Assembly (NCBI GenBank): GCA_031459655.1
Contig: JAVKID010000001.1
Coordinates: forward strand, 893-64,892
From: Candidatus Fervidifonticultor octavus
Lineage (GTDB): Bacteria > Sysuimicrobiota > Sysuimicrobiia > Sysuimicrobiales > Humicultoraceae
Length of the DNA stretch: 64,000 nucleotides
Direction of reading: 5' to 3'
The translations under genes and the position numbers were made by a program. Shown piece after piece: positions 1,782 through 60,883 of the stretch (the stretch's first letter is position 1; each line of letters begins with the position of its first letter). The notes under the pieces are model-generated. The model did not search any database. It was given only the letters and a program-made list of their open reading frames with translations, and was not told where the DNA came from.

Positions 1782-2738
1782 GTGAACTGGAAGTACCCCG
1801 CATTCCTCTGGCTACTGCCGGCGCTGGCTGGGCTGAGCGCCCTCTCCCTGGCCGTCCTGTGGCGCAGGCAGGCGCGCGGCGCCGTGCGCTACCCCCTCTG
1901 GATCGTGGCCGAGGCCGCCTCGCACGCCGGTCCGATCCGCCGGCACCTGCCGGCCGTCTTCCTCATCCTCGCCCTGGCCGCCGCCATCCTCGGCGCCGCC
2001 GGGCCGGTGGTCCCGTGGTGGACGCCGACCGGGTGGCCGGTGGTGCTTATCATCGATGTCAGCCGCAGCATGGAAGAGCCGGACATCCCGCCCAGCCGCA
2101 TCGAGGCCACCAAGGCGGCCGCCCTGGACTTCGTGGCGCGGCTCCCGCGCGCGACGAGGGCGGCGCTGGTCACGTTCGGGAACTATGCGACCGTCGTGGT
2201 GCCCCTCACAGCCGATCGGGCGAGGATGCAGGAGGCGATCCGGGGCATCACCACGCAACTGCGCACGCAACTTGGCAACGGTCTGGTGGAAGGGGTCCGC
2301 GCGGTGGCGGGCGAGGGCGGCTCCTCCCCAGGGCCGAATGCGGCGCCGGGAAGCGGAACTCGGGCGATCGCCATCCTCCTGTCGGACGGCCGCGCGAGCG
2401 ACGGGATTCCACCCCTGGAGGCTGCGGAGGAAGCGAGGCGCCGGGGCGTCCGGGTCTACACGGTCGGCGTCGGGACGCTGCAGGACCCGTCGAACTTCCG
2501 CAGCGGCTACTGGGGGGTGCTGGACGAGCCGACGCTGCGGGCGATCGCGGCCGAGACGGGAGGGCAGTACTTCCACGCCGCCGAGGCCGGGCGGCTGCGG
2601 GAGATTTACCGCGACCTGGCCGGGATGGTGGGATGGGAGCGGCGACCGACCGAGGTCTCGGCCGTCGCGGGCGGGATGGCGATGGCCCTCCTGGTGGTCT
2701 CGGTCGTACTGCGATTCCTGCTCTTCCCGATGGGGTAG
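1782..2738 (+). CDS. VWA domain-containing membrane protein (BatA-like)
   Basis: Two N-terminal TM helices, then a von Willebrand A fold with a MIDAS-like DVSRSM motif (LIIDVSRSMEE), and a C-terminal TM. GTG start. Confidence 0.7.
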   Translation: MNWKYPAFLWLLPALAGLSALSLAVLWRRQARGAVRYPLWIVAEAASHAGPIRRHLPAVFLILALAAAILGAAGPVVPWWTPTGWPVVLIIDVSRSMEEPDIPPSRIEATKAAALDFVARLPRATRAALVTFGNYATVVVPLTADRARMQEAIRGITTQLRTQLGNGLVEGVRAVAGEGGSSPGPNAAPGSGTRAIAILLSDGRASDGIPPLEAAEEARRRGVRVYTVGVGTLQDPSNFRSGYWGVLDEPTLRAIAAETGGQYFHAAEAGRLREIYRDLAGMVGWERRPTEVSAVAGGMAMALLVVSVVLRFLLFPMG

Positions 2739-2743
2739 ACGGC

Positions 2744-2920
2744 ATGCTATGTTCGACGCGGCCGAGGCTTTGCTGCACGAAGGAGGCCTTCGGCAAGCGG
2801 ATCGAAGGTAACGACGGTGTCTACGCCCGCGTGACGGCGGAAGACTTGGAGACCATGCTCCGGCAGGCCAGGGAGGTCCTGCTGGCAGCCCGACCTCACC
2901 TTCGGTCCGGCCGGCGATGA
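2744..2920 (+). CDS. Small hypothetical ORF (58 codons) whose stop overlaps the XPB start (ATGA)
   Basis: The frame reads ...KEAFGKRIEGNDGVYARVTAEDLETMLRQAREVLLAARPHLRSGRR. The second half is protein-like, and it ends TGA overlapping ATG 2917 of the helicase. The N-terminus and the true start are uncertain. Confidence 0.25.
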   Translation: MLCSTRPRLCCTKEAFGKRIEGNDGVYARVTAEDLETMLRQAREVLLAARPHLRSGRR

Positions 2921-4392
2921 CCCCCTCCGCCCGCCTCCGCTTCGACCGCGGCTCCCTCCGCCTGGACGCCCCCCGGCAGACGCGCGTCCCGCCCTCTCTC
3001 ATCTGGGACAGCCGCGTGGGCGCCTGGCGGACGGAAGCGCTCCACTACCAGCAGGTCCGCGAAGAGGCCGCGCGGTACCACCTTGCCCTGACCGACGAGG
3101 CCGAGCGCTACTTCGACTGTCCGCCGCTCTCCGTGGCCCTCCCCCCGCTGCGCCCGGACCAGCAGGCAGCCGTCCTGGCCTGGGAACGGGCGGGCTGCCG
3201 GGGCGTGATCGTCAAGCCTACCGGCACCGGGAAGACCGAGATCGCCCTGGCCATCATCGCCCGCCACCGGGTCCCGGCGATCGTCGTCGTGCCCCTGCGG
3301 GATCTGATGTACCAGTGGCAGCGGCGCATCCGGCAGGGGTTGGGGGCAGACGCCGGCATCCTCGGCGACGGCCGGCGCGAGGTCTGGCCGATCACCGTGA
3401 CCACCTACGACAGCGCCTATATCCACATGAAGGAGATCGGCAACCGGTTCCGCCTGATCGTCTACGACGAGGCGCACCACCTGCCGGCGCCCACGCTGCG
3501 GGAGAGCGCGCTGGACTGCCTGGCGCCCATGCGCCTCGGGCTCACCGCCACGCCCTGGCGGGCCGACGGGGCCGACCGGTTGCTGGAGGATCTCATCGGG
3601 CCGGTCGTCTACCAGGAGCAGATCTCCCAGGCACGGGGCAAGACGCTGGCCACCTACAGTCTCATCCGCGTGCCGGTCCATCTCGGCGAGGAGGAGCAGG
3701 CCGAGTTCGACGCCCTGTCGCGGCGCATCCGCGCCTACGTGGCCCGCCGGCGCCGCGCAGGCCGTCCGGCAGAGGCGGACGGCCCGAGGCCGATGGGGGC
3801 GGGAAGGGACCGGAGGCTCACTGCGGGCTTCGACTGGACGCGGGATCTGGCCATGCATGCCCGCACCGATCCTGAGGCCCGGGCGATCCTGCGGGCCTAC
3901 CGGCGGAAGCTTGCCATCACCCACCGCTCCGCAGAGAAACTCCGCGTGGTCGAGGACATCCTGCGTCTGCATCCGGACGATCAGGTGGTGATCTTCACCG
4001 CCTCGAACCGGATGGCGCTCGACGTCTCGGCGCGCTTTCTCATCCCGGCTTTGACCTCGCATTCCGACAAGCAGGAGCGCACCCGCGTCCTCGACCTCTT
4101 CGCCCTGGGGAGGTTTCGGGCCCTGGTGGCCTGCGAGGTGCTCAACGAGGGGTGGGACGCGCCCGCCGTCAAGGTCGGGGTGGTGCTCGGGGGAGAGAAG
4201 GGGACCAGGGAGGCGATCCAGCGCATCGGCCGTCTGCTCCGGAAGAGCGGGGACCGCACCGCGCGCCTCTACGAGGTGGTGGTCCAGGAGTCCCCCGATC
4301 TGGCCCGGGCGCGGCGACGGGGCCGCACCGATGCTTACCAGACCGCAACGCGTCTATCACTGGATCAGGCCCGGCAGGTCGATCTCTTCTGA
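2917..4392 (+). CDS. XPB/Ssl2(ERCC3)-like superfamily-2 DNA helicase
   Basis: Walker A VKPTGTGKTEIA, DEAH box (IVYDEAHHL), helicase C motifs, and an XPB-type damage-recognition-like N-terminus. Followed by a Bax1/DUF790 gene, as in archaeal XPB-Bax1 pairs. Confidence 0.8.
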   Translation: MTPSARLRFDRGSLRLDAPRQTRVPPSLIWDSRVGAWRTEALHYQQVREEAARYHLALTDEAERYFDCPPLSVALPPLRPDQQAAVLAWERAGCRGVIVKPTGTGKTEIALAIIARHRVPAIVVVPLRDLMYQWQRRIRQGLGADAGILGDGRREVWPITVTTYDSAYIHMKEIGNRFRLIVYDEAHHLPAPTLRESALDCLAPMRLGLTATPWRADGADRLLEDLIGPVVYQEQISQARGKTLATYSLIRVPVHLGEEEQAEFDALSRRIRAYVARRRRAGRPAEADGPRPMGAGRDRRLTAGFDWTRDLAMHARTDPEARAILRAYRRKLAITHRSAEKLRVVEDILRLHPDDQVVIFTASNRMALDVSARFLIPALTSHSDKQERTRVLDLFALGRFRALVACEVLNEGWDAPAVKVGVVLGGEKGTREAIQRIGRLLRKSGDRTARLYEVVVQESPDLARARRRGRTDAYQTATRLSLDQARQVDLF

Positions 4393-5580
4393 CCGGCTGG
4401 ACGACGCCTGCCTGCCGCACCTGGCCCGGGCGGTCGCCGTCTACCGGCGGATGGCCGGCCGAACCCGCGGCGAGGTGCGCAATGCGGCGCGGATGGCCCT
4501 GGGCCGGTTGCGGCCCGACCGGGTCGAGGCGATCGTCAAACTCCTCGACGACGTCGCGACCTACGAATGGCCCCGCGGCGGCCGGCAGGCGGAACGGCGG
4601 CTGCGGGTGTTCGAGGCGGCCGCGCGGGCGCATCCCCTGGTGGATCCCGGGCGCGCCCAGGCGCTCCTCCGCGAGGCATTGGGCGCCGTTTGGGCCGGGG
4701 ACCAGGGGCGCGGGGCGCCGGGGGCGCCGCCGCGTCTCGACGAGGCCGTGCCCGCCCTCTATGCGGACTACCCGGAGTTCCACCGCCTCCGCGCCTTTCC
4801 CGCGGACTACTCCGCAGACGCCCTGCGGGCCGACTACGACCTGGCCCAGGCCCAGGCGCTGCTCTACGATGCGATCCGCGTCACCGTGGAGGCGACCGGC
4901 GACTTCAAGCACATCGTGCGCTATGCGCGGCTGGCCCGCCTGCTGCACCGCATCCAGCGGCTGCGCGGAGGAGGGTACCGGTTGGTCTTTGACGGGCCGA
5001 ACTCGGTGCTGCGGCAACCCACGCCTACGGGGTGGACTTCGCCAGGTTCCTGGCGGCGCTCGTCCAGGCCCGGGGCTGGACGTTGACCGCGGAGGTCGTG
5101 CTGAGGCGGGGATGGCGGCCGGCGACGTATGTCCTCTCGGACGCCGACGGACTCCGCTCGCGGGTGCCCGCGCCGGCGCTCTTCGACTCCAGGCTGGAGG
5201 AGACGTTCGCGCGCTTGTTCGGGCCGCACCGCGACGGCTGGCGGCTGTCGCGCGAGGCTGTGATCCTCGAGGCCGGCGAGGGGCTGCTGGTCCCCGACTT
5301 CGTCTTCACGCACGACGACGGCACCGAAGTGGCGTTGGAGATTGTCGGCTATTGGACGCCGGACTATCTGGCGACGAAGTTCGCCAAGCTGGGCGGGGTC
5401 CGGACTCCCCACCTGATGGTGGCGGTGCGCAAGTCGCTCGCCCTGCGCGCCGGGAGCCTGCCTGCGACGGTCCTGCCCTTTGCCAGCGGGATCCTGCTGC
5501 GGGACCTGATGCCCAGGCTGGAGGCCTTCCGGTCCGGGGCGCCTACCAGACCATCGGCGAGCCGGCCGTCGGCTCGATGA
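4331..5580 (+). pseudogene. Bax1-like nuclease (DUF790) partner of XPB, split by a frameshift near 4990-5035 into 4331-5086 and 5032-5580
   Basis: The N-terminal frame (MLTRPQRVYHW...GGGYRLVFDGP) and the C-terminal frame (YGVDFARFLAAL...LVPDFVFTHDDGTEVALEIVGYW, a PD-(D/E)XK-like nuclease core) sit in different frames and together make a Bax1-length protein (~415 aa). The start overlaps the XPB 3' end. Confidence 0.6.
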
Positions 5581-6955
5581 CCCGGACGTCCGGCACCAGG
5601 GCCTTCCACATCGCCGCCTGCTCCGTGTGGATCGGCACCAGGATCTCCGGCCGCAGCCGCCGGACCATCCGAACCAGATCCGCCTGCCCCGCGTGACCCG
5701 ACGCGTGGCTGACGACCCGCCGCTGCACGCCCAGTCGGTCCAGCCAGTTGTCCAACCGCCACCGGTCGAAGACCTGCTCTTCGTCGTGCGGCTCGCTGGC
5801 CGAGGAGACATACAGCGCATCGGCGCCGACGTGGAGGTCGATCAGGTTCAGGATGTCCCAGAACGACAGGGCCAGGATCAACCGGGACGCCATCGGCCGC
5901 AGGTCCTCCGGCGACCGCGCGGTCGGCCAGCGGAGCACCCGACGCTCCCAGGTGGCGTAGTCCTTCTCACTGTAGGTGCCACTCTTCTTGCGTTCCTTGA
6001 GGATCAGCATGGGCTCGGCGCGGGGGTCGGGCACGAGCGGGTGGAGGCCGCGCAGGCGGTCGAGCAGGAAGGCGTCCTGCGGGAGGACGACGAGAACGCG
6101 TCCGGTCTCCTGCGCAATGCGCAGGAACGTCGCGAGCCGGTAGAGGTCGCGGGGCGCGAAGTCGGCGATCACCGGCCCGCGTGTCTCGCGGACGGCCGCC
6201 AGGCACTCGGCGAAGACGTCCTGCTCGGTGCGCCGCACGGTCTCGTCCAGGCGCGTGCCCTCGGCCAGCAACATCCAGACGCCCTCGGCCGCCGCCGCCT
6301 CGAGCATGGCCTCGCTGAGGTGTGCGTCCGGGCCGTGGAAGCGCAGGTCGCCGGTGTAGAGGATGGTGCCGCGCGAGGTGCGCAGCAGGAACGCGACGCA
6401 GCCGAGCATCGAGTGGTCGACCGGCAGCGCACGGCAGGAGAGCCCGCCGACGTTGAACTCGCCTTCGACCTCGAGGAAGGGCCGCGGGGTCGCCACGCCC
6501 CTGTCGTCGAAGGCGGGCCGGCGCTTGAAGTTGACGATCTCGGTCTCGAAGTCGCGGGCGCGGCTCTCCTGCATCGCCTGCAGGGTGCGGAGGCACAGCG
6601 GCGAGCAGACCGTCGGGACCCGCTCGTCCAGGAAGCCGATGTGCCCGGCGTGGTCGAGGTGCGCGTGCGTGAGCAGGACCGCCTGCGGGAGCGGTTCGGT
6701 GTGGACCGGCAGCCCGTGGTCGCCGATCGCCAGCAGGTCGCGGCGGTAGAGGCCCGGGACCGCAGGCAAGACGCCGGTGACGAGCAGGTCGGTCAGGCCG
6801 GCCGCCGTGCGCGGCTTGAGGTACTCCTCGAAGTAGCGCTTGCGGCGCGCGTAGGAGATCCCGAAGTCCAGGAAGACGCAGGCCTCGCCGTCCTCCAGGA
6901 GGATCTTGTTGCCGCCGATCTCGCCGGCGCCGCCGAACACCGTGAGGCGGAGCAT
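5543..6955 (-). CDS. MBL-fold metallo-hydrolase of the beta-CASP type (RNase J-like / RNA-metabolising)
   Basis: HxHxDH motif (THAHLDHAGHIGFL), a further histidine motif (VSHASGH) and a beta-CASP-like C-terminal region. Start at MLRLTVFGGAGEIGGN (ATG 6955); the upstream R-rich extension was rejected. Confidence 0.7.
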   Translation of the reverse strand: MLRLTVFGGAGEIGGNKILLEDGEACVFLDFGISYARRKRYFEEYLKPRTAAGLTDLLVTGVLPAVPGLYRRDLLAIGDHGLPVHTEPLPQAVLLTHAHLDHAGHIGFLDERVPTVCSPLCLRTLQAMQESRARDFETEIVNFKRRPAFDDRGVATPRPFLEVEGEFNVGGLSCRALPVDHSMLGCVAFLLRTSRGTILYTGDLRFHGPDAHLSEAMLEAAAAEGVWMLLAEGTRLDETVRRTEQDVFAECLAAVRETRGPVIADFAPRDLYRLATFLRIAQETGRVLVVLPQDAFLLDRLRGLHPLVPDPRAEPMLILKERKKSGTYSEKDYATWERRVLRWPTARSPEDLRPMASRLILALSFWDILNLIDLHVGADALYVSSASEPHDEEQVFDRWRLDNWLDRLGVQRRVVSHASGHAGQADLVRMVRRLRPEILVPIHTEQAAMWKALVPDVRVIEPTAGSPMVW

Positions 6956-20530: not shown

Positions 20531-21352
20531 ATGCGAGCGGAGCGGATCGTGAAGGTCGGGTTGGCCGGGTTCGGCGCCATCGGCCAGCGGGTGGCGGTGG
20601 AGGTAGCGCGGATGGTCCCCGAACTGTGCCTTGCCGCCATCACCAGCGGGGATCTGGAAAGAGCCCGCGTCCGGGCGCAGGCGCTGCTGCAGGTCGCCCC
20701 GCCTGTGGTACCACTGTCTGAACTGGTCGTCCGCTCTGATCTGGTCGTGGAGGCGGCGCCGGCTGCAGCCTTCCAGGAGATCGCCACGGCGACGTTGCGG
20801 GCGGGCAAGCGGTTGCTCGCGGTGAGCGTGGGGGCGCTACTGGACCGCTACAGCGAGTACGCGCATCTGGCGCACCGGTGCGGCGGCCGGATCTACATCC
20901 CTTCAGGGGCGATCGGAGGGTTGGACGCCCTCGCCGCCGCCGCGGTCGGGCAGGTGGAGACGGTCACCATGGTGACGCGCAAACCGCCCCGGGCCCTGGC
21001 CGGCGCGCCCTACCTGGAGAAGCACGGCATCGACGTCATGGCGCTGCGCGAGCCCCAGGTGGTGTTCGAAGGCACCGCGCGCGAGGCGTGTCGGGGCTTC
21101 CCCGCCAATGTTAACGTGTCGGCGGCCGTCAGCCTGGCTGGGATCGGGCCGGACCGCACCCGGGTCCGCATCATCGCCGATCCGGGGATCGACCGCAACG
21201 TGCACGACGTGGAGGTCACGGGCGACTTCGGCCGGTTCGCGGTGCACATCGAGAACGCTCCGTCGGAGAACCCGCGGACCGGGGTACTGGCCGCCCAGTC
21301 GGTGATCGCCATGCTGCGCACACTCGTCTCGCCGGTCCGCGTGGGGACGTAG
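20531..21352 (+). CDS. Aspartate dehydrogenase domain protein (NadX-like, DUF108)
   Basis: N-terminal Rossmann VGLAGFGAIGQ and an AspDH-like C-terminal region. Confidence 0.65.
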   Translation: MRAERIVKVGLAGFGAIGQRVAVEVARMVPELCLAAITSGDLERARVRAQALLQVAPPVVPLSELVVRSDLVVEAAPAAAFQEIATATLRAGKRLLAVSVGALLDRYSEYAHLAHRCGGRIYIPSGAIGGLDALAAAAVGQVETVTMVTRKPPRALAGAPYLEKHGIDVMALREPQVVFEGTAREACRGFPANVNVSAAVSLAGIGPDRTRVRIIADPGIDRNVHDVEVTGDFGRFAVHIENAPSENPRTGVLAAQSVIAMLRTLVSPVRVGT

Positions 21353-21363
21353 GGCGTGCCGCA

Positions 21364-21717
21364 GTGTCGGACCCTGCTGCGCCCGATGCGCAGTTCCTCT
21401 ACCTGACGACCACGGGCCGCTGCACCGGCCGGCCCCGCCAGATCGAGATCTGGTTCGTGGCCTCGGGCGGAAGGTACTATGTCCTGGCCGAGCACTTCCA
21501 CCAAGCGCAGTGGGTGCAAAACATCCTGCGCGAACCCCGCGTGCGCATCCGCGTGGGAAGCCCCGACGCGCCGGAGGAGACCGCCACCGCCCGGGTTCTG
21601 GACGCCGGCCGTGACCCGGAAGCCTGGCACCTGGCGCAGCGGCTGGCCCGGGAGAAATACGGATGGGGTGAGGGCCTGCCGGTCGAGATCACGCCGGTTA
21701 GCGCCACTCGATCGTGA
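21364..21717 (+). CDS. Nitroreductase-family deazaflavin-dependent oxidoreductase (DUF385)
   Basis: LTTTGRCTGRPRQIEIWF and the NILREPRVRIRVG motif typical of DUF385/F420H2-dependent reductases. Confidence 0.6.
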   Translation: MSDPAAPDAQFLYLTTTGRCTGRPRQIEIWFVASGGRYYVLAEHFHQAQWVQNILREPRVRIRVGSPDAPEETATARVLDAGRDPEAWHLAQRLAREKYGWGEGLPVEITPVSATRS

Positions 21718-23677
21718 CCACCTCGACAGGGTCGGCCAGCCCTCTCAAGTGAACGCTACGCGGACTCGACGTGACAACCCTGGTCAATTCCGACGCGACC
21801 GTCTCGCGGCTGGCCAGGATCTGCTCGCCGTCCGCCAGCGCCGCGATGCGCGCCGCCACGTGCACGCCGCCACGTGCACGCCCTTGCCGCGATAGCCCGC
21901 GCCCCGGCGCGTGGCGGTGGCGGTGTGCAGGCCGATCCGCACCTGAGGCGCGAACCCATGGGTGCGGCGGTGGTCTGCGGGTGTGCGCTGGATTGCGACC
22001 CCACACTCAATAGCTGAGCCCGCGTCTGGGAAGGCGACGAAGAAGCCGTCGCCGGCGTGGTCGATCTCCTCGCCGCCGTGCCGCGCGAAGAGTGACCGCA
22101 GCATCTGATCGTGCCACCGCGTCAGGTCGGCCCAGGCGTCGTCGCCGATCGCTTCGACCAAGCTTGACGAGCGCACGATGTCCGTGAACATGAAGGTCCG
22201 CGTCGTCCGTTGACCCGTCGCGGCAGCCGTCCGCCGAACGGCGGTCTCTGTGCCGAGTCGTTCGACGGCCCGTTGCGCATCGAGCCTGGCGCCCAGGCGC
22301 TCGAACGCGACTCGGGCTGCCTGGAGTTCCAGCGTCGCCGCTTCTTCAGCGCTCTCGGCTTGGTACGCATCTGCGAGCAGGACGCAGGTCCGCGCGACCT
22401 CATAGGGACAGTCGAGCTCCTGCGACAGATGCCTGGCGCGGCGCAGGCTGCGCTCGGCGCCGATCGCATCGCCCTGCGCCAGCTGGAGCGCGCCCCTGGC
22501 ATCTGCCGCACTCGCTTCAAGGGCCGGGGTGCCGTGGGCTCGGGCGATGTCCTCCAATTCTTCGACAGCTGCTCGCGCATCGTCGGTCTCCCCGGCCGCG
22601 AGCGCGATCTCGACCAGGGTCGGCAGCAGATGCGCCCTGCGCAGCCGATCCGGGGGATCATGCACTAGGGCGCGCCTGACTGACGTCAGGGCGGCTTTCA
22701 CCTTCCCCTCGGCCAGTCGGAGAAGAGATAGACCTGGCTCCGGGTCCATGCCTAGCTCGTGCGCCTGGCGGAACGCCTCTTCGGCGGCGGCCAGGTCGCC
22801 CTTGTACAGGCGGACCTCACCCAGTTCGTAGAATGCGGCTGCGCAGTATCCCAGGTTGCACTCACGCAGCTCCTCGCAGGCCCGCCGCGCCTCCTGCTCG
22901 GCCTCCGGCCAGGCGCCAGCCTGACGCATGATGCCGGCACAGTAAACGCGGCACATTCCCGGGAAGCCAGCGATCGCCTGGCGCTCGCACCAGCGCTTGG
23001 CGGCTTCGGTCCATTCCCGCGCCCGGGGATGGTCGGCCAGCTCCTTGCAGGCGGTGATGGTGTTGCAGTAGATGATGCCCGTCGCCATCGGGCCCAGCTC
23101 GCCCGAGACGGTTGCCACCGTGGCCTCGTCCATGAGGGCCATTCCTTCGTTCACCTGGCCCCTGGCGACGTGGATGCGTCCCTGATCGTGGAGCGCCAGC
23201 GCCATCAGGTCGCGGTCACGGAAGCGCGCGCCGATGTCGTAGGCTCGCTGGGCCAGCATCAGCGCCTTCTCGTGGCTTTTTGTCCTCGATGGCGACGACG
23301 GCATTGATCCTCATCAGGTAGCCATGTTCGAGGGACTCGGGCTCCTGCTGCAGCAGCCGGTTGGCGCGCTTCAGCCAGGCCATGGCGACCGAGGCGTCGC
23401 CCTTCTGGAAGTAGTTCCGGGCCTGCTCGCCCGCCATGAGCGCGGCCCGGCGCGGATTCCCGGACTCTATGTATCCGGCATACGCGCGGTCCCGCGCAGC
23501 GATGCAATCCGCGAGCCGGCCGGTCCACCAGGCGGCGTCCGCCAGCCGTTCGAGATCCTCTGGCGCCAGGGCTCCGGAGGCATCGGCCGCCTTCAGGAGG
23601 TCGAATGCCTCCCGCCAGGCGTGCCGCCGGCAGGCGTCACACCCAGCCTGAAGGACGTCCTCGACCCTCTGGGTCAT
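21698..23677 (-). pseudogene. TPR-repeat protein with a C-terminal class III adenylate/guanylate cyclase domain, disrupted by two frame-breaking lesions
   Basis: Three frames: 23677-23216 (TPR N-terminus), 23304-21784 (TPR plus the cyclase start: FMFTDIVRSS...HAGDGFFVAF...VRIGLHTA) and 22006-21698 (the cyclase end: GVHVAARIAALADGEQILASRE...). Deleting one copy of the 14-bp tandem repeat at 21853-21880 rejoins the cyclase domain exactly. Confidence 0.6.
21853..21880. repeat. Perfect 14-bp tandem duplication (CCGCCACGTGCACG x2) inside the cyclase catalytic-domain coding region
   Basis: Read directly from the sequence. 14 is not a multiple of 3, so it shifts the frame. Removing one copy restores ...GKGVHVAARIAALADGEQ... 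Confidence 0.9.
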
Positions 23678-24180
23678 CGGTGGCCCTGCGGCAACCCTCG
23701 GCGCTCGGCGTACTGCCGCCTGCGCTTGGCGATCGTCCGCAGGTGGTAGTGGATGTGATCAGCGAAGTGGTTTACGATCCACTCCAGCGTCTGTGGGCCG
23801 TCCTCCGTGTGCATCCCGGTCTGCTCCCATGCGGAGGCCGGCGCACGGCGGAGGAGTTCGGTGGTCGTCGCGCGGATGGCCCGCAGGAGCGCCAGCGCCT
23901 CATCGAGCGGGTGCGCGGCATAGTCGAGGGTGCGCGCCCAGAGGTTCTGGTCGAAGGCCACCAGCGTGGATCCCGGCTGGGCCAGGACGTAGCGGATCCT
24001 GGTTGCGGCCACCAGGTCGGTGTCGGCCACGTGGACGACGTTCTCGTGGATGCTCCAGTGCTCGGGCCCGGGCTTGAAGTGGAGTTCGTCCTCCGGGATG
24101 CCGGCGACGGCCGCTTGGAGCAGCCCGGGCCCCTCGGCGTAAGCCTGGACGAGGTCCGCGATCCTCTGGGCTGTTGGCAT
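23674..24180 (-). CDS. DinB-family (DinB_2) metal-dependent protein
   Basis: DinB-like four-helix protein with His motifs (HENVVHVADTD, HFADHIHYHL). Its stop overlaps the start of the TPR-cyclase gene (ATGA). Confidence 0.7.
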   Translation of the reverse strand: MPTAQRIADLVQAYAEGPGLLQAAVAGIPEDELHFKPGPEHWSIHENVVHVADTDLVAATRIRYVLAQPGSTLVAFDQNLWARTLDYAAHPLDEALALLRAIRATTTELLRRAPASAWEQTGMHTEDGPQTLEWIVNHFADHIHYHLRTIAKRRRQYAERRGLPQGHR

Positions 24181-24283
24181 CGGGCCCCCCGCCTCCTACC
24201 TGAACGCCGGATGCCCCTATGGTAGCAGCGCCCGCGCCGGACGCGGCAGGGACTGTCCACCCGCGGAGGCAATTCCTCAATCC

Positions 24284-24725
24284 ATGAGCCCCTGGGTGAC
24301 CTATCCGCCGCGTCAGGTGCGCGCCCTCGCCGAGCAGATCGAGCAGGACGGCGGCCACGCGCTGGCCGTCTACCAGGAACGGCTGGGCGACCGCTGGCAG
24401 CTGTTCTGCCTGCTGCCCCTCGGCCGGACGGAGCCCACGCCGTTCCGGCGCCGCCTCTCCCCCGGGCACGCCAGGCGTCTCCAAGGGCGAGCTCATCCCG
24501 GCCAGTGCGATCCCCGATCCCGGGATCGCCTACAACATCACGCTCGGCCTGCTCTACGCCGCCGACGAGGTGCTCTCCGACATCGTGGCGAGGCTGCGCC
24601 GGAGGCTGACCGAGAACCTTGAGCGGTTCGACGTCACCCGCATTCGCGTGAGGACGTGGCCCACTCGGCGTCGATGGCCGCGTCGTCCGGCGGCACCTGA
24701 TCGGACGCAGGGGACGGGCGCGTGA
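24284..24725 (+). pseudogene. Hypothetical protein, apparently frameshifted at a C5 run (about 24459-24463); the second frame ends GTGA-coupled to the DUF1684 gene
   Basis: Frame 1 reads MSPWVTYPPRQVRALAEQIEQDGGHALAVYQERLGDRWQLFCLLPL..., then frame +1 reads ...GELIPASAIPDPGIAYNITLGLLYAADEVLSDIVARLRRRLTENLERFDVTRIRV, ending at 24725 and overlapping GTG 24722. Confidence 0.35.
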
Positions 24726-30161: not shown

Positions 30162-31583
30162 CTAGCGGTTCAGCAGGATCGGCAGGGTCAGCGCGATCAC
30201 CACCACCAGCGCCCACAGCGCTGGCGCCGAGGTGAGCAGGTGTTCCCTGCGGCGGACCACGCGGGCTTCCTCGACCCGCGACCGCGGGATCCACCACGGG
30301 TTGAAGCGGGCCTCCAGCAGGTGGAAGACGACGCCCATCGCGGCACCGTAGGCGAAGTGCGCCACCAGGCTGCCGAAAAGTGCTGCGGCGGCCTCGGCCG
30401 TCCACTGGGGCGCCGCGCCCAGCAGGACCGGCATGAGCGTGAGCGGGCCGAGCACCCACCACAGGAAGCCGTAGGTGACGCCCCAGCCCAGCGCCGAGCC
30501 GACGTCGAGGCTCTGCCGGCGGAAGAACAGCCCGTAGCTCGCGCCGATGGCGCAGGCCACGACAACCTGTACGGTGACGCCGGCCAGCGCCGACCGCGAC
30601 CCGAGCAGGCCGGCCGCCGCCGGGACGAACCCGGTGCGCACGGCCACCACGGTGAAGAGCGCTCCGCCGGCCAGCCCGGCCAGCACGCCACGGCCGATGG
30701 CGCGCAGACCCTCGGTGCCGATGCCTTCCTGGTCCCCGCCGCCGCGGATGTCGGAGAACAGCAGGCGCGCCACGCCGTCCAGCCACTGGACGCCCAGGCC
30801 GACCGCGGCCCCGAAGAGCAGGTAGCCTGGCAGCACGGAAAACCCTGCGCGGGCGTCCTCGACCGACCATGCCAGCCCGGCCCCCCGCGCCAGCGGCACG
30901 ATGGTCAGGGGCCAGAGGGCCCACCAGAAGAAGCCAAAGACCATGCCGCGAACCAAGGCCGGTCCGGTGCCGTCCGGGGGCCGCGGGTAGAGCAGGGCGA
31001 AGCTGACCCCGCCCAACAGGCCGATCACCGGGGTCGACGGGCCGTCCGCCCGCGGTCCGAGCAGCGCGAGAAGCGGCCAGGCACCGGCGAGGCCCGCGAC
31101 GGCGCCCCGGACCAGCACGCCGACCAGCGTCCAGCCCCGTAGCGCGCCTCCAGGCAGGGGGTCGCGCCGGATCGCCGCCAGGGCCAGGCCCGTGGCGGCG
31201 CCGTAGCCGAGATGCGCCAGCAGGCCCGCAAAGGCCTCCTGCGCCGAGTGCACGTCCCAGGCGATGACTCCGAGCTGCAACAGCGGCAGCAGGGTCAGCG
31301 GGCCGAGGAACCACCAGAGCGCGCCGTAGGTGAGGCCCCAGAACAGCGTCTCGCCGGCTCCCGGGCGCTGGTGCCAGACGAGCACGCCGAAGCCAGCCCC
31401 GAGGATCGCCGCGACAACCAGGTGGACGACCACGCCGGCGCCGGCAGCGCCCGGGCGCACCAGCGACGCGGTGGAGGGGAGCGCGGCGATCTGCGCCAGG
31501 GCCGCTGCGGAGATCAGGCCGCCGACCAGGCCGGCCAGGGTGCCGGGAAGAACGCCACGGGCGAACCAGTCGCGGGTCCTCAC
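30162..31583 (-). CDS. Polytopic membrane protein built from three tandem ~110-aa modules (signature YGxxWWxxGPLTLxPxLLG ... HxxYGAxxG), paralogous to the NDH-2 N-terminal module
   Basis: GTG start at 31583 overlapping the NDH-2 TGA (GTGA). Three internally homologous repeats are visible by eye. The 170 R/P-rich codons upstream in the listed ORF are rejected because they overlap the NDH-2 coding region. Confidence 0.65.
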   Translation of the reverse strand: MRTRDWFARGVLPGTLAGLVGGLISAAALAQIAALPSTASLVRPGAAGAGVVVHLVVAAILGAGFGVLVWHQRPGAGETLFWGLTYGALWWFLGPLTLLPLLQLGVIAWDVHSAQEAFAGLLAHLGYGAATGLALAAIRRDPLPGGALRGWTLVGVLVRGAVAGLAGAWPLLALLGPRADGPSTPVIGLLGGVSFALLYPRPPDGTGPALVRGMVFGFFWWALWPLTIVPLARGAGLAWSVEDARAGFSVLPGYLLFGAAVGLGVQWLDGVARLLFSDIRGGGDQEGIGTEGLRAIGRGVLAGLAGGALFTVVAVRTGFVPAAAGLLGSRSALAGVTVQVVVACAIGASYGLFFRRQSLDVGSALGWGVTYGFLWWVLGPLTLMPVLLGAAPQWTAEAAAALFGSLVAHFAYGAAMGVVFHLLEARFNPWWIPRSRVEEARVVRRREHLLTSAPALWALVVVIALTLPILLNR

Positions 31584-33397
31584 GCGCCGGCTCCCGGGGG
31601 CGACGGCATCGTCGCCGGGGTGCGCGAACTCGCCCCCGTCACCTGCGGCAGCGTCGGCGTGGGGACGCCGCCGGTCAGCACGATGTCCCGCGGGAAGAAG
31701 AGGTCGAGCGTCCAGTCGAGCACGACGCGGACCTTCTTCTCGAGGCCGGGCAGTTTGCTCAGGTAGACGGTCCGCCACAGGAACCAGGCGAGCAGGCCGG
31801 AGAACTTCCATCCGCGGATCTCGGCCACGGCCGTGCGATGGCCCAGGGCGACCAGGGTGCCGATCGTGCGGAAGCGAAATGGTCTGGGCGGCTGGCCGCG
31901 CAGTGCGGCCGCGATGTTCTCGGCCGCGGCCTGCCCCTCGCGCAGCGCGTGCTGCGCCGTGGGCGGGCAGGACGTCCCCGGGCGGTTGGGGTCCGGGATC
32001 TGGGCGCAGTCGCCGACGGCCCACACGGCTTCCAGGCCCCTGACCCGCAGGGCCTGGTCGGCGACTGCGGCGCCGGCGCGGCTGCGCTCGCATGGCAGAG
32101 TCGCCAGCAGCGGATGAGGCTGGTTCCCGGCGGTCCAGACCAACGTCCGTGTCGGGATCGCACGGCCGTCGCCCAGCAGGACCGCGTCGGATGTGGCCCC
32201 GCCCACGCGGGTGTTCAGCAGGAACTCGATCCCGCGCGCCTGGAGCTTCCGCAGGGCGTAGTCCGCCAGCGCCCGGCTGATCTCAGGCAGGATGCGCCCG
32301 CCGGAGTGGATCAGGAGGAAGCGCGGTTCGTGGGGCTGGATGCCGGGATAGTACCGGAGCACGCTCCCCACCAGGTCGAACAGTTCGGCGATCATCTCGG
32401 TGCCGGCGAACCCGCCCCCGGCGACCACGAAGGTCAACTGGCGCACGCGCTCCTGGGGATCGGTCTCCGCGTCCGCGCGCTCCAACAGCGCGATGACGTG
32501 GTTGCGCAGCCGCGTGGCGTCGTCCAGGGTCTTCAGCGTGAAGGCGTGGGTTTCGAGGCCGGGGAGGCCGTAGAAGTTGGGAACCGCACCCAGGGCGAGG
32601 ATCAGGTGGTCGTAGGGGAGCACCTCGGTCGGGGCGGTCGGGTCGGTCCGGATGCTGACGGTTCTGGCGGCGCCGTCGACGGCCTCCACCTCGGCCCGCC
32701 GGAAGCGCGTGTGCTGCAGCGCCGCGCGCACCGGCGCGCTGATGTGCTGGGCCTCCAGGCCGCTGCTTGCCACCTCGGCCAGCATGGGGGTGAAGAGTAG
32801 GTAGTTGCTCTGACTGACCAGGGTGATCTCCAGCCGCGGATCGCGCGCGAAGAGGTGCTCCAGGCGCTGCGCGGCACTGACGCCTCCGAATCCGCCTCCC
32901 AGGATGACCACCCGCCAGGACGGCGCCTCCGGGAGCGGCAGACGGCCGAGGGCCGCGGTCTGGGGGTGCCGGCGCAAATAGAGCGCGACGAGTCCATAGA
33001 AGCTACCGCCGAGGAGCGCGCCGTAGAGCAGGTGCCCGACCAGGTTGGGCAACGCGGCCGCCGCGGCCGCAGCCGTCCAGGTTGGCGCGCCGCCCCGGAG
33101 GAGCGGGATCAGGGTCAGGGGGCCGGCGATCCACCAGAGGAGCGCGTAGAGGACACCGCCGGTGATCGTCGACGCGTAGCCGAGCGGCTGGTAGCGGAAG
33201 ATGACCCCGAACCCGGCGCCGATCAGCACCGCGGAGCCCAGGTGGACGGCGAGCCCGGCCCCCAACGACGCGAGCCCGATCAGGCCGGCAACACTAGCCA
33301 GCAGGCCCTGGGCCTGCATGGCCCAGGCCGAGGCCAGGCCCCCGACCAGTCCCCCGATCCCGCCGGCGACGAGGTCACGGCGTAGCGCGTGCGACAC
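31580..33397 (-). CDS. Type II NADH dehydrogenase (NDH-2)-like FAD/NAD(P) oxidoreductase with an extra N-terminal 4-TM membrane module
   Basis: Residues ~1-140 form a membrane module (GAGFGVIFRYQPLGYASTITGGVLYALLWWIAGPLTLIPLLRGG...). Then the canonical NDH-2 region: GGGFGG FAD site, GGGFAG second dinucleotide site, GDCA. Confidence 0.75.
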   Translation of the reverse strand: MSHALRRDLVAGGIGGLVGGLASAWAMQAQGLLASVAGLIGLASLGAGLAVHLGSAVLIGAGFGVIFRYQPLGYASTITGGVLYALLWWIAGPLTLIPLLRGGAPTWTAAAAAAALPNLVGHLLYGALLGGSFYGLVALYLRRHPQTAALGRLPLPEAPSWRVVILGGGFGGVSAAQRLEHLFARDPRLEITLVSQSNYLLFTPMLAEVASSGLEAQHISAPVRAALQHTRFRRAEVEAVDGAARTVSIRTDPTAPTEVLPYDHLILALGAVPNFYGLPGLETHAFTLKTLDDATRLRNHVIALLERADAETDPQERVRQLTFVVAGGGFAGTEMIAELFDLVGSVLRYYPGIQPHEPRFLLIHSGGRILPEISRALADYALRKLQARGIEFLLNTRVGGATSDAVLLGDGRAIPTRTLVWTAGNQPHPLLATLPCERSRAGAAVADQALRVRGLEAVWAVGDCAQIPDPNRPGTSCPPTAQHALREGQAAAENIAAALRGQPPRPFRFRTIGTLVALGHRTAVAEIRGWKFSGLLAWFLWRTVYLSKLPGLEKKVRVVLDWTLDLFFPRDIVLTGGVPTPTLPQVTGASSRTPATMPSPPGAGA

Positions 33398-49963: not shown

Positions 49964-50989
49964 GTGCGCATTGCCGTGTTGACAGGCGGCGGGGACGCGC
50001 CGGGGCTGAACGCCGCGATCCGGGCCGTCGTCCGCCGGGCCCTCGAGGGCGGTCACGAGGTCGTCGGAGTCCGCAAGGGCTGGCTGGGCCTGCTGGAGGG
50101 CGACGTGGTCTCGCTGACCCGCGACAGCGTCTCGGGCATCCTGCCCCGCGGCGGCACCATCCTGGGGACCTCGCGTACGAATCCCTTCAAAGACGATGAG
50201 GGTGGCCGGCGCGTGCTGGACACGATTCGGCGGCTGGGCATCGACGCCATCATCGCCATCGGCGGCGACGATACCCTGAGCGTGGCGTTGAAATTGCACC
50301 GGATGGACGTCCGCGTGGTGGGGGTGCCCAAGACGATGGACAACGACGTGCCGGGCACCGACTACACCATCGGGTTCGACACCGCCGTCAATGTGGTGAT
50401 GGAGGCCTGCGACCGGCTGCACACCACCGCGGAGGCCCATCACCGGGTCATGATCATCGAGGTCATGGGGCGGGACGCCGGCTGGGTGGCCGGCGTCGGC
50501 GGGCTGGCCGGCGGGGCCGACGTCATCCTGGTCCCCGAGGTGCCGTTTACGATCGACGAGGTGTGCGAGACCATTCGACGGCGCCACGAGCGGGGCCGGA
50601 CGTTCAGCATCGTCGTGGTGGCCGAGGGCGCGAAGCCCAGCGACTTCGGGGGGCAGATCACCCAGGACGCGCGCGTCGACGAGTTCGGGCATGTGCGGCT
50701 CGGCGGGGTGGGCGCACTGCTGGCCCGCGAGGTCGAGGCTCGGACTGGCTATGAGACGCGCGTGACGGTGCTGGGCCACCTCCAGCGCGGCGGCTCGCCC
50801 ACGGTCTTCGACCGGGTGCTCGCCACGCGCCTGGGAGTGGCGGCGGTGGAGGCCGTCGAGGCGGGGACGTTCGGCATGATGGTGGCCGTGCAGGGGACGA
50901 GGATCGTCACCGTTGGCCTGGAGGAGGCGCTGGGCGGGTCCAAGCCGCTGGATCTGGAGCTGTACAGGCTCTCGCGGCTGTTCCACTAG
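49964..50989 (+). CDS. pfp: 6-phosphofructokinase, probably pyrophosphate-dependent (GGDD and PKTMDND at the E. coli 104/124 positions)
   Basis: PFK fold: GGDAPGLNAA, MIIEVMGR, and HLQRGG. It has GGDD-T and V-PKT-MDNDV where E. coli ATP-PFK has GGDG-S and PGT-IDND. Asp/Lys at these two positions is the established PPi-PFK signature. Confidence 0.8.
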   Translation: MRIAVLTGGGDAPGLNAAIRAVVRRALEGGHEVVGVRKGWLGLLEGDVVSLTRDSVSGILPRGGTILGTSRTNPFKDDEGGRRVLDTIRRLGIDAIIAIGGDDTLSVALKLHRMDVRVVGVPKTMDNDVPGTDYTIGFDTAVNVVMEACDRLHTTAEAHHRVMIIEVMGRDAGWVAGVGGLAGGADVILVPEVPFTIDEVCETIRRRHERGRTFSIVVVAEGAKPSDFGGQITQDARVDEFGHVRLGGVGALLAREVEARTGYETRVTVLGHLQRGGSPTVFDRVLATRLGVAAVEAVEAGTFGMMVAVQGTRIVTVGLEEALGGSKPLDLELYRLSRLFH

Positions 50990-50998
50990 GCCGGCCGC

Positions 50999-51765
50999 CT
51001 ATTTGATGAGCCGGCGGCGCATCAGCACCACCGGCAGCGGGAACAGCGCCACCGTCACGACAGACAGCCAGGTCAGGTCCGCGACGTGGCGCGGTCCCGG
51101 TGTCCCCAGCGCCAGGGCCCGGGTGAGGTGGACAACATGGGAGAGCGGCGTCAGCCACGCCGCGACGCTCACCCACCCCGGCAGGGCATCCAGGGGGAAG
51201 AACACGCCGCTGAACATGAACATGGGCGTGATGAACAGCGCGAAGTAGAAGGTGAAGTAGTCGATGCTGGGGTTGATGGCCGTGAAGGTCATGGCGATGA
51301 CCGAGAACATCAGGCCCGACAGGAAGAACAGCGGCGGGATCAACAGCGCCAGGATCGAGCGGACCACGCCGAACAGGGCGATGACGACCAGGAACACCGT
51401 GCCGTAGAGCACGCTGCGCGTGGCCCCCCACAGGATCTCCCCCACGACCACGTCCTCGATCCCCAGCGGCGTGGTGATGGCCCCGTCGTAGGCCTTCTCG
51501 TAGTACATCTGGACGTAGGCGTTGTACGTGCACTCGAAGGTGGCGCCGAACATCGCCGAGGCTGCCACGAGCCCGGTGGCCACGAAGGTCAGGTAGGGCA
51601 GGCCGGCGACGGTGCTGAGGTAGGCGCCGATCCCGAAGCCCATGGCCAGCAGATAGATCACCGGTTCCAGGAAGTTCACGGCGACGGATTCCGGGAAGAT
51701 CCGCCGAAAGATGAAGGCGTTGCGCTGCCAGAACCGGTAGGCCCCCTTCGGCGAGAACAGCCGCA

Positions 51766-60251: not shown

Positions 60252-60883
60252 TGCGCTACCTGCTGGAGAACCCCGCCCTCGTCCTGCGCCTGCTCGGCCA
60301 GCACCTGTGGTTGACCGTCGTCTCCCTGGCGCTGGCCCTGCTGGTCGCCCTGCCGCTGGGCGTGCTGGCGGCGCGGTCGGCCCGGGCGCGCGGCCTGCTT
60401 TTGGGGGTGCTCGGGGTCGTCTACTCCATTCCCAGCCTGGCGCTGTTCGTGCTCCTGATTCCGCTGTTGGGCCTGGGGCGCCTCCCGGCGGTGACGGCGC
60501 TGGTCGCCTACGCGCAGGTCATCCTGGTCCGCAACGTCACCGTGGGGCTGCTGGGTGTGGACCCCGCGGTGACCGAGGCCGCCAGAGGGATGGGCATGAC
60601 GCGCTGGCAGCGCTTCTGGCGCGTGGAGTTTCTCCTGGCGCTGCCTGTCATCTTGGCCGGGGTGCGCGTCGCGGTGTTGGCCATTATCGGGATCGGCACG
60701 ATTGCGGCGTTCATCAATGCCGGCGGACTGGGCGTGCTGCTGTTTGCGGGCGTGGCCCAGAGCCATCCCGACAAGATCGTCGCCGGCGCCCTGACGGCCT
60801 CAGGGCTGGCGCTGGGTGTCGGTGCCCTGGTGCGCGGGCTGGAGGACCGGATGCTGCGGGCGATGCAACGCGCCGCGCGCTAG
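60251..60883 (+). CDS. Osmoprotectant ABC transporter permease (second permease, OpuBD/OpuCD-like)
   Basis: TEAARGMGMTRWQRFWRVEFLLALP EAA-type motif. Its ATG overlaps the upstream TGA (TGATG). Confidence 0.8.
   Translation: MRYLLENPALVLRLLGQHLWLTVVSLALALLVALPLGVLAARSARARGLLLGVLGVVYSIPSLALFVLLIPLLGLGRLPAVTALVAYAQVILVRNVTVGLLGVDPAVTEAARGMGMTRWQRFWRVEFLLALPVILAGVRVAVLAIIGIGTIAAFINAGGLGVLLFAGVAQSHPDKIVAGALTASGLALGVGALVRGLEDRMLRAMQRAAR

Follow-up and report, generated by a model that had tools for sequence, protein, structure and literature searches.

The locus described here raises the question of whether a signalling gene has truly been lost. An earlier note had reported it as a TPR-adenylate cyclase gene inactivated by a tandem duplication and a second frame break, and two such breaks might reflect genuine decay, an error of assembly, a reversible switch, or the remodelling of the gene into something shorter. 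Throughout, the window refers to the whole 64-kb stretch of DNA that was analysed.

Layout of the locus and its neighbours

On the minus strand, as read over positions 21500-24300, the gene starts with an ATG at 23677 and ends with a TAA at 21698. It comprises the following features, listed together with the two adjacent genes.

21698..23677, minus strand: the whole TPR-cyclase gene, a probable pseudogene; 1980 nt, with a 654/655-aa ORF once repaired
23216..23677, minus strand: N-terminal fragment ORF, 153 aa; in NCBI 'hypothetical protein QN131_11035'
23277..23281, minus strand: lesion 1, an A5 run (T5 on the plus strand); net -2 nt (or +1 nt) vs orthologues
21784..23304, minus strand: middle fragment ORF, 506 aa; TPR region and cyclase domain to Ala605, then 27 out-of-frame codons
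21853..21880, minus strand: lesion 2, a perfect 14-bp tandem duplication, CGTGCACGTGGCGG x2 on the gene strand
21698..21852, minus strand: stranded 3' remnant; Arg606, the last ~50 cyclase-domain residues in the original frame, and the stop codon
23674..24180, minus strand: intact upstream DinB_2 / YfiT-like gene, 168 aa; its stop overlaps the ATG of the cyclase gene (ATGA)
21364..21717, plus strand: convergent downstream gene, 117 aa, deazaflavin (F420)-dependent oxidoreductase-like

Residues 1-132 of the 153-aa fragment are authentic and are followed by ~21 out-of-frame codons and a stop. NCBI annotates the middle ORF as a protein of 491 aa, beginning from a Met at 23259, under the name 'helix-turn-helix transcriptional regulator'. 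This name is unsupported, because Pfam and NCBIfam domain searches detected no HTH domain, nor any NTPase domain, in the protein.

The upstream gene matches Pfam DinB_2 (3.7e-19), with a match to the NCBIfam YfiT-like family that falls under the cut-off. The TGA of this gene (24180..23674) overlaps the ATG of the cyclase gene, just as the earlier note had described in calling the two ATGA-coupled, and the ancestral cyclase gene would have been translationally coupled to its DinB_2 neighbour. The pairing is common only to the closest orthologue, L003, and a DinB-cyclase operon as a family-wide arrangement was dropped from consideration, as the other examined loci have different upstream genes. 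At the opposite end, the 3' end of the oxidoreductase-like gene shares 20 nt with that of the cyclase gene. A tblastn search of the window found no paralogue of the TPR-cyclase, there was no Rfam match in the window, and a promoter and terminator scan of 21300-24700 was empty. No RNA or regulatory element was detected that would explain the region.

The ancestral protein and its family

Naive repair of the gene, by deletion of one copy of the 14-mer and one A of the A5 run, yields an uninterrupted 654-codon ORF. This repaired ORF has more than 4000 database matches over its full length, nearly all of them ~650 aa long and with 100% coverage. Its alignment to hundreds of these ~650-aa proteins covers 100% of its length, in keeping with the earlier proposal that all of the segments match one TPR-cyclase protein. 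The homologues derive from Armatimonadota, Gaiellales, Rokubacteria, and other metagenome-assembled genomes, and those that carry an annotation at source are labelled 'class 3 adenylate cyclase' or 'adenylate/guanylate cyclase domain-containing protein'. In a scan of GTDB genomes, the best match was 69% identical.

The closest relative, L003 (JGI contig Ga0073934_10051331), is 89% identical in protein and 90% identical in DNA, and it carries neither lesion. Its flanks are homologous to those of the window gene on both sides, including a DinB_2 gene upstream with the same 4-nt overlap, and by sequence and gene order it is the positional orthologue. Only three indels separate the window from L003 at the DNA level: a 2-nt gap, a 14-nt insertion, and a 3-nt in-frame difference near the 3' end. 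Neither frame break is found in any of 118 full-length homologues. The comparison with orthologues that the earlier note had proposed as a check thus agrees with its reading of an interrupted gene.

In the repaired protein, Pfam identified TPR_MalT (43 bits, just under the cut-off of 45) and TPR_12, along with a weak match to Guanylate_cyc (22.7 bits vs a cut-off of 21.9). Among PDB sequences, the cyclase domain matched Ma1120 with an E-value of 4e-25 and Rv1900c with an E-value of 5e-18. The structure was considered through an AlphaFold2 model of the orthologue P0001 (89% identical, 654 aa; mean pLDDT 90), in which 25 helices form a TPR-like superhelix over residues 1-480, followed by a disordered linker at 478-489 and a cyclase-homology domain at 491-651. 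By Foldseek, this domain resembles Ma1120 with a TM score of 0.88-0.92 and Rv1900c with one of 0.82-0.88, making Ma1120 the best solved-structure match by both measures. The ancestor would thus have been a cytoplasmic signalling protein of ~655 aa, with a TPR-like N-terminal region of ~480 residues, a flexible linker, and a C-terminal class III cyclase domain. The superhelix may have served as a regulatory or partner-binding module, and the domain probably had cyclase activity.

Two lesions interrupt the gene

The 14-mer CCGCCACGTGCACG has exactly two occurrences in the window, at 21853 and 21867, and these abut head to tail, confirming the tandem duplication that the earlier note had placed at 21853-21880. 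The period-14 tract spans 21851-21882 when the two further bases that match on each side are counted, and it includes the 4-nt microhomology; TRF calls the duplication at 21847-21882 with 2.6 copies and a score of 65. It is the sole perfect tandem duplication with a period of at least 10 in the window, and perfect duplications with a period of at least 14 appeared in 0 of 200 simulations under a first-order Markov model. The duplication sits in the G-V-H-V-A-A-R codons of the cyclase domain, inside the catalytic domain as had been claimed. More precisely, it falls in codons 601-605, at the start of the helix bearing His602 and Arg606, and it replaces Arg606 and everything downstream with the 27 out-of-frame codons, so that the last ~50 residues are lost. 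Removal of one copy reopens the frame down to the stop at 21698, which also bears out the original description.

In the inferred single-copy sequence, two 4-nt direct repeats, GGCG on the gene strand, lie exactly 14 nt apart, and the duplicated unit contains the palindromes CGTGCACG and CACGTG. The spacing of the repeats makes the replication-slippage origin suggested earlier a plausible one, and the duplication most likely arose by slipped-strand mispairing between the two GGCG repeats, a mechanism read from its footprint. In common with slipped-strand duplications as a general bacterial mechanism, it is perfect, head to tail, and composed of a unit bounded by a 4-nt direct repeat, and there is nothing unusual about it in this respect.

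The second frame break had been placed near a T5 run. The site, at 23277-23281, was confirmed; a reading as a 1-bp gain, which a naive repair suggests, fares less well. When its DNA is aligned with that of L003, the window shows a gap of 2 nt in the A run, and the protein alignment of the family (118 homologues) is gapless here only with one extra codon restored, as seen from the window sequence IED-KSHEKAL vs FEGQRDHEKAL in P0001. Because the window is both 2 nt short of the orthologous DNA and one residue short of the 118 homologues, we read this lesion as a 2-bp loss, and on these alignments a 2-bp deletion appears more likely than a 1-bp insertion.

Taken in order along the gene, a 2-bp loss (or, less likely, a 1-bp gain) at the A run after authentic codon 132 would end translation at residue 153, and the 14-bp duplication, between the codons for His602 and Arg606, would remove the transition-state Arg along with the C-terminal end of the domain. 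Either lesion by itself would be expected to abolish the full-length cyclase, and the locus has probably lost its function.

The lesions in independent assemblies

The window derives from a metagenome-assembled genome, and some sequencing platforms are known to make indel errors in homopolymers. It could therefore be supposed that both breaks are artefacts of sequencing or assembly and that the true genome has the 14-mer only once and keeps the A run in frame. To set against this, there are Logan contigs, which were built separately for each run by a pipeline other than the one behind the window assembly. Contigs from SRR27730035 (3852 bp) and SRR27730037 (3438 bp) extend across both lesions and are 100% identical to the window. 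The duplication is also crossed by contigs from SRR27730036 and SRR27730039, for a total of 4 runs, and the A-run lesion is also crossed by contigs from SRR27730036, -39, and -41, as well as from SRR27730034 with one SNP (D7H), for a total of 6 runs. The separate assemblies of these 4 to 6 runs agree base for base with the window over 0.9-3.9 kb, both lesions included. The two-copy state in the reads, which the earlier note had marked for checking, is thus supported by proxy, through contigs of 4 runs with 100% identity across the duplication.

Moreover, the duplication junction ...GTGGCGGCGTGCACG... cannot form in a k-mer graph without reads that carry it, which makes an artefact very unlikely. 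A perfect 14-bp duplication is not a base-calling error either, and the other large ORFs of the window have no obvious frame break, as judged from a coarse GC3 survey and the list of ORFs, so that the assembly does not give the impression of being prone to errors in general. The supporting runs have neighbouring accession numbers and probably belong to one study, possibly to one site. Both fragments also exist in NCBI under two accessions each (MDR7517958.1 and MDR7550451.1 for the 491-aa product, MDR7517959.1 and MDR7550452.1 for the 153-aa product), all four of which are named as Armatimonadota MAG proteins. The duplicate accessions suggest two NCBI records, probably corresponding to two genome bins.

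An intact allele was also sought in public collections. None was present in a 5.8-billion-cluster protein collection, where the full-length query found nothing closer than 89%, and short queries across the lesions returned matches of at most 81% at the duplication site and, at the A run, only the truncated fragment itself. The JGI metagenome contigs likewise contained no intact allele, with a motif scan finding 26 loci, all of them single-copy and only L003 closely related. As to whether the duplication is polymorphic, a single allele was found in all of the runs and databases searched, with the qualification that Logan contigs are simplified graphs in which a minority intact allele could be hidden. 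Given that independent assemblies carry the lesions, that intact orthologues exist, and that no intact allele was found in these collections, the argument of the earlier note for genuine pseudogenisation is well supported. The gene is very probably a genuine pseudogene, apparently fixed in its population.

Short tandem duplications revert at high frequency, and this raises the issue of whether the gene might be subject to reversible ON/OFF phase variation or, alternatively, whether programmed ribosomal frameshifting might still give a full-length protein. The earlier note had spoken of three reading frames. When the repaired protein was compared with the window by tblastn, it matched in three collinear segments, in frames -1/-2/-1, meaning that only two frames are used and that the first and third segments share one. 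This follows from the lesions themselves, as -2 and +14 sum to +12, and a pair of shifts that adds up to a multiple of three speaks for such a mechanism. However, the shared frame of the outer segments has no functional meaning, as the 1.4-kb stretch that separates the lesions has many stop codons in that frame, which also argues against frameshifting. The full-length homologues examined have neither frame break, and hence there is no conserved recoding site. For phase variation, the repeats are minimal, consisting of two copies of the 14-mer and an A5 run, and two independent reversions would be required; the ON allele was found in none of the 6 runs nor in the databases searched. The locus has neither a hypermutable tract nor coexisting ON and OFF lengths of the kind that characterize phase-variable loci. 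Switching or recoding at this locus is therefore extremely unlikely, and both breaks are best regarded as lesions in a pseudogene.

Selection on the window lineage

If the gene is a pseudogene, the pattern of substitution may indicate how long it has been one. Pairwise dN/dS against the orthologue is 0.22, vs 0.12 for the adjacent DinB gene, and the total number of derived amino-acid changes is 30 in the window lineage vs 26 in the orthologue. This dN/dS, together with the balanced number of changes, indicates that most of the divergence took place under purifying selection and that any neutral period was short. The distribution of the changes is less even. At columns that are at least 90% conserved, there are 11 derived replacements in the window lineage vs 2 in the orthologue (one-sided binomial p = 0.011), and at columns at least 95% conserved there are 7 vs 1 (p = 0.035), an excess that depends on the threshold, with p = 0.27 at 50% and p = 0.19 at 99%. 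Replacements at invariant positions in the window lineage include W419S, R432C, and L567P. Such a pattern is suggestive of a short period of relaxed constraint on the window lineage, bearing in mind that the signal is threshold-dependent.

The same data bear on the possibility that the gene has been remodelled rather than lost, with the ~500-aa middle ORF, which holds the TPR superhelix and three quarters of the cyclase domain, and perhaps the 153-aa piece, still being made and acting as a TPR scaffold or regulator that lacks catalytic activity. In favour of this, the 506-aa ORF remains open and begins inside the end of the upstream fragment, making translational re-initiation conceivable, NCBI lists the middle ORF as a CDS, and the overall dN/dS is that of a gene under constraint for most of its history. 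However, of the 11 replacements at strongly conserved columns, 9 are located within the TPR part itself (R13C, L170H, A190T, Y217H, R247C, F274C, W419S, R432C, and G443S). The first five TPR-like helices are cut from the rest, the cyclase domain is cut mid-helix and, judging from the model, likely misfolds, and the truncated architecture is found in no homologue among the top matches. Remodelling is thus improbable, and loss of the gene remains the preferred explanation for the locus.

Catalytic residues and substrate

To place the cyclase domain among known enzymes, the catalytic positions were scored across the 118 full-length homologues. The window gene has both of the metal-binding Asp residues, which are almost universal in the family (D500 in 118/118 and D544 in 117/118). 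His602 and Arg606 are invariant (118/118), lie on the helix spanning 599-609 in the P0001 model, and align to His402 and Arg406 of Rv1900c. Of the transition-state pair, then, the Arg606 codon is still present in the window gene, now out of frame, and the Asn position is occupied by the invariant His. In Rv1900c, an active atypical cyclase, the transition-state Asn is likewise replaced by His (PMC4886424). An alignment to Ma1120 had at one point led us to read the Asn as replaced by Gly and the family as catalytically dead; this reading was dropped, as the Rv1900c alignment and the rule that the residue lies four before the Arg both lead to His602.

The residues that specify the substrate are another matter. 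In Ma1120, the substrate-specifying pair is K101/D157, with K101 as the ATP-specifying Lys (PMC4215837). At the Lys position, the window gene and 96/118 homologues have Asp, and the Asp specificity position is Gly in the window gene and variable across the family. The window gene accordingly does not have the Lys/Asp pair of adenylate cyclases. For the description of the gene as a TPR-adenylate cyclase, this means that the TPR region and the class III cyclase fold stand, whereas 'adenylate' is an assumption. Because the substrate Lys is replaced by Asp and the second position is Gly or variable, the term is a label by homology only, and the domain is, as far as its sequence indicates, an atypical class III cyclase of the Rv1900c/Ma1120 type. 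A link to Pycsar-type defence was also considered and rejected, with the PADLOC PycC profile matching only part of the domain (E 1.4e-3, 16 bits), and PADLOC found no matches in the two flanking genes scanned.

Relation to known systems and significance

The closest precedent is Rv1120c of Mycobacterium tuberculosis, a class III cyclase pseudogene with an intact orthologue, Ma1120, in M. avium (Shenoy et al. 2005, via PMC4215837; PMC2447327). In both cases, a class III cyclase gene has been disabled in one lineage, with an intact orthologue in a close relative. The proteins themselves differ, as Ma1120 consists of a cyclase domain alone and has the canonical Lys101/Asp157 pair, whereas the window protein has a TPR-like N-terminal region of 480 residues and carries Asp in place of the Lys.

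Rv1900c (LipJ; PDB 1ybt/1ybu) is similar in having kept both metal-binding Asp residues and the Arg and in having His for Asn, with His602 of the window protein aligning to the His of ...GVAVHIGAR.... Its own N-terminus is an alpha/beta-hydrolase domain, in contrast to the TPRs of the window protein. The best NCBIfam match of the window protein is to the cyclase part of LipJ at 82 bits, and since this is far under the cut-off of 800 bits, the window protein is not a LipJ orthologue.

A combination of TPRs with a cyclase is also known from Rv0386, Rv1358, and Rv2488c, which are mycobacterial cyclase-ATPase-TPR-HTH proteins. The window protein shares a MalT-like TPR region with these and with TPR regulators of the MalT/LuxR type. 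However, the domain order is reversed, with the TPRs first and the cyclase last, and the NTPase and HTH modules of the mycobacterial proteins have no detected counterpart.

Small slippage indels are a routine route of bacterial gene loss, and the pseudogene is, in biological terms, an ordinary gene-loss event. Its main value is for annotation, in that the two fragment names in NCBI, neither of them supported, should give way to one frameshifted TPR-cyclase pseudogene. The locus also offers a clean, datable case of recent signalling-gene loss in an uncultured Armatimonadota population, with a textbook slipped-mispairing footprint.

There is, finally, a slim chance that the locus is not simply dead and persists as a stand-alone TPR scaffold of ~500 aa and, separately, that the intact family makes a nucleotide other than cAMP. 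The former would imply a pathway in the course of being rewired by domain amputation, and the latter that this lineage has discarded an uncharacterised second-messenger pathway. Since the substrate-specifying residues are non-canonical, the large uncharacterised TPR-cyclase family is of greater interest than the pseudogene, and the question of its substrate is independent of the fate of the window gene.

Public annotation and family of the TPR-cyclase

The TPR-cyclase pseudogene is represented in the public annotation by two fragments, named by NCBI as follows:

21784-23259 (-), pseudogene fragment, 'helix-turn-helix transcriptional regulator' (MDR7517958.1)
23216-23677 (-), pseudogene fragment, 'hypothetical protein' (QN131_11035)

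No HTH domain was detected with Pfam or NCBIfam; the only domains returned were TPR and a truncated cyclase.

The repaired protein, obtained by undoing both frame lesions, belongs to a TPR-cyclase family of >4000 members (family set P0001-P0120), in which the specificity and catalytic positions correspond to window codons 540, 595, and 602. Among the 118 full-length homologues compared, the position of the ATP-specifying Lys is occupied by Asp in 96, the second specificity residue varies, and the position of the transition-state Asn is an invariant His, a substitution shared with the atypical class III cyclase domain of Rv1900c from M. tuberculosis. A Gaiellales MAG (JBBDMP010000093.1, locus L007) encodes a tandem pair of full-length paralogues, at 2068-3990 and 4001-5953, and the family can therefore be multi-copy; redundancy may permit losses within it.

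Variation among sequencing runs

Every Logan contig over the 5' part of the pseudogene (six runs) ends exactly at window 24066, within the intact upstream DinB_2 gene, and no repeated 20-mer was found at this contig end (24066/24067). These shared ends suggest a strain-level branch point just upstream of window 24066. Within the pseudogene, the contigs of SRR27730036 and SRR27730039 are interrupted at 22050-22093 and those of SRR27730035 and SRR27730037 are continuous through this interval; either low coverage or local polymorphism could have caused the breaks. The pseudogene population contains one SNP, at about window 23659 in the SRR27730034 locus (L041), which produces D7H in the N-terminal fragment (P0122 versus P0121).

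Other features of the window

An ORF at 31580-33397 (-), assigned by eye only to the pyridine-nucleotide-disulfide (NDH-2-like) family, bears the motif ...LWWxxGPLTLxPLL... in its N-terminal membrane segment, and the ORF directly after it, from 30162 to about 31600 (-), contains three repeats of that motif; the pair may represent two genes or a split fusion. The 89-nt tRNA-Trp called by ARAGORN at 50912-51000 (+) overlaps an ORF (49964-50989) at its 3' end, and Rfam detected no tRNA at the gathering threshold. The ARAGORN call is probably a false positive. The top TRF score within the window, 70, belongs to an imperfect tandem repeat at 60320-60368 (24-nt x2, 84% matches), which lies in an ORF and has a period that is a multiple of three.
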